Below, piece after piece: positions 50,191 to 50,760 of a DNA stretch of 64,000 bases. Source of the stretch: an uncultured Gemmataceae bacterium (GTDB taxonomy: Bacteria; Planctomycetota; Planctomycetia; Gemmatales; Gemmataceae); NCBI GenBank assembly GCA_963750165.1, contig CAVVPN010000011.1:1088001-1152000 (forward strand), read 5' to 3'. How positions within the stretch are numbered: the first letter of the stretch is position 1; every line of letters starts with the position of its first letter. The position numbers and the translations under genes were made by a program. The notes below the pieces were generated by a model. It did no database searches. It was given only the letters and a program-made list of their open reading frames with translations, and had not been told where the DNA came from.

Positions 50191-50760
50191 TTACGACTTA
50201 GTCCCAATCAGGAAGTTCGCCGTAGCCGCCGGTGAAGGCGTCTTCGGGCGCCCCTCCCTTTCGTGGCTTGACGGGCGGTGATTGAGGTCGTTGAATCCTA
50301 CGCCTCGTTCCCACTGGACAAGCGCGTCTAGCGCATCCAGCGAGCCCCGATGCATTTGTGCTGCCAACTGCTTGGTTAATTCCAGCCCTTGCTCCGTGAG
50401 GTGTTCCTCCCGTTCGATGAGCGCGATCACCTGTCGAAACAGGTCGAAATCGCGCTTCTTACTGGGGAACCGCAGGGGGTGCTGTTGGAAGAATGGGACG
50501 ATAACTTCCCGCAACGCCACCCGGTTGCTAACCTCATAGCGAAAACAAAGACAATGGTTTGGTCGCCGATCACGTTGGACATAAACCTTGCCGGCTCCAA
50601 AGAACTCGCGGACTTCATCGAGCACGGGCCGATCAGCGGCCCGCAGTTTGAGGCAGAATTTGGGTTCTACCTTCGCCCGACGGCGTTGCGAGAGATTGAA
50701 GTGAACGGCAAAGCAGCCTTCACCATCGGTCAACCCGACCAGATAGTCGGCAGTCAGCAT
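50191..50760 (-). CDS. Single-motif LAGLIDADG homing endonuclease (intron-encoded)
   Basis: YLVGLTDGEGCF, FFGAGKVY, IVPFFQQHPL...KKRDF, HLTEQGL; SD AAGGGAG. Confidence 0.92.
   Translation of the reverse strand: MLTADYLVGLTDGEGCFAVHFNLSQRRRAKVEPKFCLKLRAADRPVLDEVREFFGAGKVYVQRDRRPNHCLCFRYEVSNRVALREVIVPFFQQHPLRFPSKKRDFDLFRQVIALIEREEHLTEQGLELTKQLAAQMHRGSLDALDALVQWERGVGFNDLNHRPSSHEREGRPKTPSPAATANFLIGTKS

Follow-up and report, generated by a model that had tools for sequence, protein, structure and literature searches.

The 64,000-nucleotide stretch analyzed here (the window) comes from the genome of an uncultured Gemmataceae bacterium (GenBank assembly GCA_963750165.1, contig CAVVPN010000011.1, positions 1,088,001 to 1,152,000) and carries on its minus strand a 16S rRNA gene that is interrupted by an insert. 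By its sequence, the insert is a mobile group II intron with a IIC-like ribozyme, for which splicing is predicted, and it belongs to the published rns-1396 / 16IS9 family. The open reading frame (ORF) of the intron, which encodes a LAGLIDADG homing endonuclease, does not end within the intron but passes through ribozyme domains V and VI (DV and DVI) and across the 3′ splice site, and terminates in the downstream 16S exon. This arrangement is probably explained by an rns-1396 intron that lost the stop codon of its ORF in a way that preserved an RNA helix, a slip that would have been tolerated, with the endonuclease being translated from the unspliced precursor.

An endonuclease ORF overlapping the ribozyme

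Alignment of the 16S gene to the Rfam model SSU_rRNA_bacteria is broken between model positions 1387 and 1388, a split that we take to lie between E. coli A1396 and C1397, as placed via the standard 1392-1406 primer site. The bases CA are common to the start of the intron and the start of exon 2, so that the boundary is ambiguous by two bases; the boundary chosen is the only option that gives an intron ending in AU (the intron terminates AAU). The exons, the ORF and the parts of the ribozyme are located as follows, from 5′ to 3′ on the minus strand.

51103..52499, minus strand: 16S exon 1, ending ..CCUUGUACA, with model position 1387 of SSU_rRNA_bacteria (Rfam) at 51103
50281..51102, minus strand: group II (IIC-like) intron of the rns-1396 / 16IS9 family, 822 nt, from the Rfam exon ends, the fold, covariation and exon-binding site 1 (EBS1)
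51095..51102, minus strand: 5′-terminal linker CAAUUAAA, preceding the GUGYG equivalent; its length is presumptive
51090..51094, minus strand: GGCGC, the presumed GUGYG equivalent; [AGCU]GCGC is conserved in the 5′ ends of relatives
51070..51072, minus strand: UAG at which the ORF would terminate if the intron formed a full-length circle, within a conserved ..CUAG/CUAA plus hairpin motif of domain I
50920..50930, minus strand: EBS1 loop UAUGUGUACUU, in which UGUAC pairs with GUACA of exon 1
50769..50843, minus strand: domain II/III region (Rfam group-II-D1D4-1, 31.2 bits, E 0.0015)
50768..50772, minus strand: GGGAG resembling a Shine-Dalgarno sequence, 7 nt upstream of the AUG and overlapping with the 3′ strand of domain III (DIII)
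50757..50764, minus strand: 5′ strand of the basal helix of domain IV (DIV), CCUGAUGC, which includes the start codon (minimum-free-energy fold)
50191..50760, minus strand: ORF of 189 codons (ORF list), made up of the core, a ribozyme-encoded tail and exon-2 codons
50346..50353, minus strand: 3′ strand of the DIV basal helix, GCAUCGGG (minimum-free-energy fold, pairing across loci)
50347..50349, minus strand: codon 138 (CGG), the site of the ORF stop in distant relatives
50310..50344, minus strand: DV, 10 + 4 bp with a 2-nt bulge, encoding ..SLDALDALVQWE..
50284..50306, minus strand: DVI, with a bulged A at 50288, 8 bases from the 3′ end
50148..50280, minus strand: 16S exon 2, beginning CACCGCCCGUCA, with model position 1388 at 50280 (Rfam); its 3′ end is approximate

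An initial annotation of this DNA had described an ORF that reads through DV and DVI and reaches the 3′ splice site at a codon boundary after 160 codons, and the ORF list and the Rfam boundaries confirm this: the codons within the insert end GAC CUC AAU exactly at the 3′ boundary. The genomic stop that it had placed in the 16S exon is also there, following a further 29 codons (HRPSSHER...) in exon 2; the terminating UAA (50193-50191) is located within the conserved GUCGUAACAAGG stretch of 16S. The LAGLIDADG core occupies codons 1-137 (50760-50350), and the tail encoded by DIV, DV and DVI extends from there to 50281, where the exon-2 part begins. The ORF begins 9 nt downstream of the DIII match, enclosed by the DIV stem. 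The coincidence of a codon boundary with the splice site is a 1-in-3 chance event.

The identity of the ribozyme was examined together with relatives from a metagenome scan, which yielded 80 loci, 6 of them close to the window and the rest of a type found in the Candidate Phyla Radiation (CPR), with 43-52% protein identity at the same 16S spot. The exon-2 motif was missing in 12 of the 80 loci, which were excluded. Among the features by which group II identity was tested, a DV hairpin, a DVI with a bulged A followed by an AY end, and pairing of EBS1 with intron-binding site 1 were found. Both the DV and the DVI hairpins appeared in the unconstrained fold, and the whole intron gave z = -4.6. 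The alignment of DV and DVI comprised 57 distinct 3′ ends (the window and 56 loci; L032, L039 and L055 were excluded for their large insertions). In this alignment 97.2% of the cells were paired and 14 of the 21 pairs showed a compensatory change. None of 500 shuffles matched the observed pairing or covariation score, and when the partner columns were slid by 1-3 positions pairing reached only 33-48% (maximum 48.3%). For DV alone, with 14 pairs, the values were 99.5% paired and seven compensatory, its basal pairs C-G, U-G, C-G and G-U being invariant among the 57 ends; the helices of DVI also covary in the relatives. The CGC of DV presumably corresponds to the catalytic triad of IIC introns. 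In two of the excluded loci, L032 (about 945-1035) and L039 (about 1972-2062), the 5′ strand of DV is followed by 40-60 extra bases, which include a separate hairpin and precede the ..GGGAAC end, and DV looks interrupted or replaced.

A 5-nt complement of the intron's own exon end was detected in the EBS1 region of 53 of the 55 distinct full-length introns (all except L010 and L067), and EBS1 switches with the exon, UGUAC standing opposite GUACA and GUGAG opposite CUCAC. Two bases beyond UGUAC in the EBS1 loop are able to pair with the first two of exon 2. Over the ligated junction, seven bases (five from exon 1 and two from exon 2) find their complement in the exon-binding loop, UAUGUGUAC. 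Exon 1 ends in ..GUACA in the window type, in ..GUACUCA in L010, L055 and L067, and in ..GUACUCAC in most of the CPR type; the exon-binding loop changes in step with this register in the window-type and main CPR-type introns, the exact CPR boundaries being presumptive. In an Rfam covariance scan of the relatives, which covered two loci, a CPR relative gave the same group-II-D1D4-1 match at 27.4 bits, and Intron_gpII aligned to the homologous DV hairpin of L003 at 23.8 bits, versus a cut-off of 40.

The protein itself matches Pfam LAGLIDADG_1 over residues 7-111 (1.5e-13) with a single motif, in which G9, D12, G13, E14 and G15 are invariant among 73 sequences. Matches in the PDB to the I-OnuI family (up to 2e-27) align with residues 5-140, the chains ending opposite residues 137-140. 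An AlphaFold2 model was built from the alignment of the 73 sequences; a single-sequence model, with a mean predicted local distance difference test (pLDDT) score of 47.7, was discarded. In the core, all but two of the 10-residue blocks up to residue 130 had a mean pLDDT of at least 92 (the two exceptions, 73 and 79). The tail fell below 50 at residues 141-166 and 169-185, and no secondary structure was predicted after residue 134. These comparisons depict a LAGLIDADG homing endonuclease with a confidently predicted core of the alpha-beta-beta-alpha-beta-beta-alpha fold, which is complete near residue 139, and a tail that is predicted to be a disordered appendage, its sequence dictated by the ribozyme.

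Loss of the stop codon among relatives

A protein search returned 82 relatives, 60 of which have a DV-encoded tail and share the nearly invariant C-terminal sequence ..MH[RWLQ]GSLDALD[AT]LVQWERG, the translation of DV. The proposal of the initial annotation that catalytic RNA doubles as coding sequence, DV and DVI lying inside the ORF, holds across this 60-protein clade. The point at which the ORF ends varies among its members:

Stop directly after DV: 17 of 60 clade proteins
Stop within DVI: 23 of 60
Past DVI and across the splice site, in the same frame as the window: 17 of 60, the window counted
Into the exon in another frame: 2 of 60
Reads on differently: 1 of 60

In 20 of the 60 (the window counted) the stop is located beyond the intron. 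The read-through frame, ..NDLN followed across the splice site by HRPSSHER, is shared by 16 other proteins (from JGI, ENA, Logan and NCBI), and the DNA of locus L004 shows the read-through directly.

The initial annotation had asked for an open frame through DV and DVI in homologous introns. Such a frame is found in the 60-protein clade, which translates DV, but not in the CPR-type introns, where a stop immediately follows ..MH, before DV, in 50 of the 51 distinct 3′ ends (45 UAG, 4 UGA and 1 UAA). The single CPR-type exception, L014, with UUG at the stop site, extends its ORF through DV. CGG or UGG takes the place of the stop in all six window-type ends. Among the more distant proteins, too, some (e.g., P0065, P0067 and P0069) close with the translation of a CPR-type DV; the stop has therefore been lost more than once. 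Of the findings that the initial annotation had named as refuting its view, neither a stop before DV in the window nor homologs that stop inside DIV were seen.

The location of the lost stop is informative. In the distant relatives it lies in the 3′ strand of the DIV basal helix, immediately 5′ of DV, and the CPR-type equivalent of this stem pairs CUAAUGC with GCAUUAG. In L007, UGG stands opposite CUAAUGC (CUAAUGC/GCAUUGG), a single transition that is tolerated as a U-G wobble. In the window and four others, CGG stands opposite CUGAUGC (CUGAUGC/GCAUCGG), forming a compensated pair. The DIV stem is paired at 7 of 7 positions in all seven window-type loci. We infer that the stop was lost in the order UAG to UGG to CGG. 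By this comparison of sequences, the stop-less state is derived and variable.

Selection was assessed over codons 1-137 of six coding sequences, among which dS was computable in 8 of the 15 pairs, the others being saturated. In the eight computable pairs, the dN/dS of the core ranged from 0.05 to 0.16, with changes mostly at third codon positions; for the pair formed by the window and L004, both of which read through, it was 0.156 at a dS of 0.75. The 48 nt of linker and DV differed at only 0-3 positions in the same pairs, versus a core divergence of 18-36%. Frameshifts and internal stops were absent from all six aligned window-type coding sequences. This pattern indicates that the core is maintained as a protein under purifying selection and that the tail is constrained as RNA. 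A quick tree joins the window to three further read-through forms (support of 95 in the Shimodaira-Hasegawa-like approximate likelihood ratio test, SH-aLRT) and to a fourth (89).

The distribution of the intron fits a horizontally acquired element, an interpretation based on four observations. Intron DNA was detected in none of 60 related genomes. Protein matches were found in 8 of 401 genomes of the phylum, including that of the window (G000), and the proteins of the other seven are 34-41% identical, with no close protein copy among the 400 further genomes of the phylum. The third-position G+C content of the endonuclease gene is 62.8%, versus 79-89% in neighboring genes. Finally, the contig search of the whole assembly gave a single 16S match. 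Of the seven more distant matches, the one examined (L087) sits in 23S rRNA.

Expression of the endonuclease and alternative explanations

In the course of events that would best account for these data, the older state is that of the distant CPR-type relatives, with an ORF ending ..MH-stop in the DIV stem. In the clade of the window, the stop would have mutated while the DIV stem stayed paired. As no stop occurs within DV in that frame, the ORF would then have run to the next chance stop, located just after DV, inside DVI or, in the window, 29 codons into exon 2. The endonuclease would still be made and be under selection, most likely through translation of the unspliced pre-16S RNA, which provides a normal stop. 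The folded ribozyme would be closed for translation, with the AUG hidden by the DIV stem and the Shine-Dalgarno sequence hidden in part by DIII (in the Rfam alignment, GAAGGGA lies in the closing helix of DIII). Since DIV, DV and DVI have to be unfolded for a ribosome to pass, translation and splicing would be mutually exclusive on any one molecule. The view of the initial annotation that an excised linear or lariat intron has no in-frame stop follows for the window member, whose excised introns would be non-stop messages for transfer-messenger RNA (tmRNA).

A sigma-70 scan revealed no internal promoter in the intron, other promoter types lying outside the scan. In public reads, the share of sampled words found in a run was at most 0.18. 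The soil RNA runs X2, X3 and X6 gave exon coverage only, and the joints in them that skip 822 nt are those of uninterrupted 16S from many organisms; no back-joint was among those listed, in reads that have no bearing on splicing, circles or expression in the host; one contig from run X1 (kind of run unspecified; 871 nt, 74 differences) spans the intron.

Several points weigh against this explanation. The route of expression, be it precursor, excised intron or circle, is one that we infer. Concerning the ribozyme, the canonical GUGYG is not found at the first base of the intron, which starts with CAAUUAAA and has GGCGC 8 nt in; the group-II-D1D4-1 match of 31.2 bits is below the gathering score of 35, and the Rfam family Intron_gpII had no match in the window at E values up to 10. 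Over 58 distinct loci, the DIV stem was paired at 7 of 7 positions in 23 and at 6 or more of 7 in 48, the best-of-window mean after shuffling being 5.5 of 7, so that support for the helix beyond the window-type clade is modest. The core could be under purifying selection because of a maturase role or of homing from cell to cell, and not because of where translation ends. Read-through has persisted through diversification, and there may be a functional reason for it. The quick tree has low resolution, 30 of its 66 inner branches being open, and two short rows were dropped from it; the stop classes appear clustered on it, with the number of switches between them unsettled.

A more specific version can be put forward tentatively, although we consider it rather doubtful. 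Here the intron would act as an either/or switch: the enzyme would be finished only on unspliced pre-16S rRNA, the passage of ribosomes would delay splicing, and excised introns would be cleared by tmRNA.

Translation might instead proceed mainly from the excised intron, with ribosomes running off its end and tmRNA tagging the product, so that only a trickle of enzyme is left. The absence of an in-frame stop from the linear or lariat intron of the window member would suit such a limit on dose, as would the tmRNA encoded in the genome (140 bits, above the Rfam cut-off) and the finding of one 16S gene, a situation appropriate for a nuclease without a free target. Two-thirds of the clade, however, keep a stop in the intron, so that tagging is not a strategy of the family, and the core is under purifying selection, a sign that a functional protein is of importance. 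We therefore regard this limit on dose as unlikely.

Even less probable is that the loss of the stop represents the first lesion of a late homing cycle, in an ORF that no longer matters. The intron does occupy the only 16S copy, leaving no empty site in the genome, and degenerate endonuclease ORFs at such CPR sites are described in the text of PMC11270868. Decay is nevertheless contradicted by the low dN/dS values and the intact frames of the six coding sequences, as well as by the invariant LAGLIDADG motif residues in the 73 sequences and the confidently predicted core fold.

The initial annotation had named circularization of the intron as a source of the stop, next to unspliced pre-rRNA; in the circle model, the endonuclease would be completed only on a full-length intron circle. 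The arithmetic of the annotation is right: joining the intron ends gives CAA UUA AAG GCG CUU GGC AGC CUU UUG AAC UAG, i.e., QLKALGSLLN and then a stop, for a product of 170 aa after 10 more codons. Agreeable to the proposal are the 20 of 60 clade proteins that have no stop inside the intron, the read-through shared by the nearest relatives of the window, the purifying selection on the core of the read-through pair, and the mention of circular group II introns in the text of PMC13190283. A circle designed to supply the stop nevertheless finds no support in the comparison with relatives. Read-through is a derived state and interchangeable with a stop placed after DV or in DVI, and the UAG belongs to a domain I motif (..CUAG/CUAA plus hairpin) that is kept in stop-bearing relatives, e.g., L005 and L007; to meet a stop within 11 codons is unremarkable for any arbitrary frame. 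The 10 extra residues would prolong a region without predicted structure, and the unspliced precursor already has a normal stop. Moreover, full-length group II circles have a 2′-5′ bond at the junction, which the ribosome would need to cross. Completion on a circle is accordingly rated as very improbable.

An error of sequencing or assembly that hides a stop before or within DV can be dismissed, as 16 other database proteins from several sources, together with the DNA of L004, share the frame across DV, DVI and the splice site.

Known systems, host genome and significance

The rns-1396 family was reportedly first described by Salman et al. in PNAS in 2012. Its members are bacterial introns with a IIC backbone, a single-motif endonuclease in DIV, no EBS2 and, in all cases, a 5′-terminal linker (Liu et al. 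2026, PMC13190283). Table S4 of that publication gives 62 members, flanked by ..CUUGUACA upstream and CACCGC downstream and having the EBS1 xGUGUACx, in Thiotrichaceae (giant sulfur bacteria), a few CPR bacteria and one uncultured bacterium. The main text of the paper states that rns-1396 is confined to Thiotrichaceae; Table S4 and the supplementary tree list Saccharimonadota, Kazan, Daviesbacteria and Parcubacteria. The window intron is similar to these members in its insertion point, flanks, EBS1 core GUGUAC, 5′ linker and single-motif DIV gene, and the 5′-terminal linker common to the family in PMC13190283 makes the missing 5′ GUGYG a known departure. In contrast to the listed hosts, the host of the window intron is a planctomycete, and no planctomycete name occurs in the supplement of PMC13190283. 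An ORF that extends through DV and DVI or the splice site is apparently undescribed for rns-1396, the word "overlap" being absent from the text and supplement of the same source, figures aside.

The 16IS9 inserts are group-II-like elements at one 16S site of CPR bacteria, around position 1400, and 39 of 53 encode LAGLIDADG_1 proteins, mostly of a single domain, according to the text of Tsurumaki et al. 2024 (PMC11270868). The CPR-type loci of the present analysis share DV, DVI and 5′ end motifs with the window, their endonucleases being 43-52% identical to that of the window. They differ from the window in the ORF stop just before DV (50 of 51), the exon end ..GUACUCAC and the EBS1 GUGAG, and in our alignment their insertion register is offset by at most 3 bases.

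Group II introns with LAGLIDADG ORFs and 5′-terminal insertions are also known from fungal mitochondrial rRNA genes (Toor & Zimmerly 2002, Li et al. 2011 and Mullineux et al. 2010, via the review PMC4424553). As described in that review, they are similar to the window intron in combining a group II ribozyme with a DNA-level homing enzyme, in residing in an rRNA gene and in splicing upstream of GUGYG. They belong to IIB1, however, and many lack the branch-point A, unlike the IIC-like window intron with its bulged A in DVI. The text of PMC4424553 consulted makes no mention of an overlap of the ORF with DV and DVI. In the literature searched, there was no endonuclease ORF that passes through DV and DVI or beyond the splice site, and no planctomycete rns-1396 intron.

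The genome assembly of the host comprises 9.6 Mb in 12 contigs. The Rfam scan of the 64-kb window gave just two RNA genes, that for 16S and a tRNA gene (56896-56969, minus strand). Neither a 23S nor a 5S gene follows the 16S gene in the window, and the 23S gene is located on another contig, so that the rRNA genes are unlinked. The same genome carries a second LAGLIDADG ORF (L092, G000:C4:1018802-1019188), 28% identical (E 1.4e-12), which lies inside the 23S rRNA gene on the same strand; both rRNA genes thus contain endonuclease-bearing inserts. Elsewhere in the window, an ORF contains the planctomycete-specific TIGR03067 domain (98.6 bits versus a cut-off of 40.15), and the region 61478-63430 (minus strand) combines an extracytoplasmic function (ECF) sigma-factor domain with two copies of TIGR03067 in one fusion.

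The intron family itself is already known; new here are the host and the overlap of ORF and ribozyme. The group II-LAGLIDADG intron of 16S position 1396 is thereby extended to a planctomycete host with a large genome. The case documents how a stop codon can be lost stepwise without harm to the ribozyme: the stop lay in a helix, its first change was tolerated as a wobble, and the pair was then compensated. The "conserved" peptide GSLDALDxLVQWERG is a shadow of RNA conservation, which calls for caution in annotation and in the building of protein families. As the intron interrupts the only 16S gene found, its splicing there should be essential. If the either/or switch were true, the dose of endonuclease would be tied to the splicing of an essential rRNA, giving the element a built-in switch; and if translation and splicing do compete, the intron would provide a compact natural model for interference between ribosome and ribozyme on an rRNA precursor.

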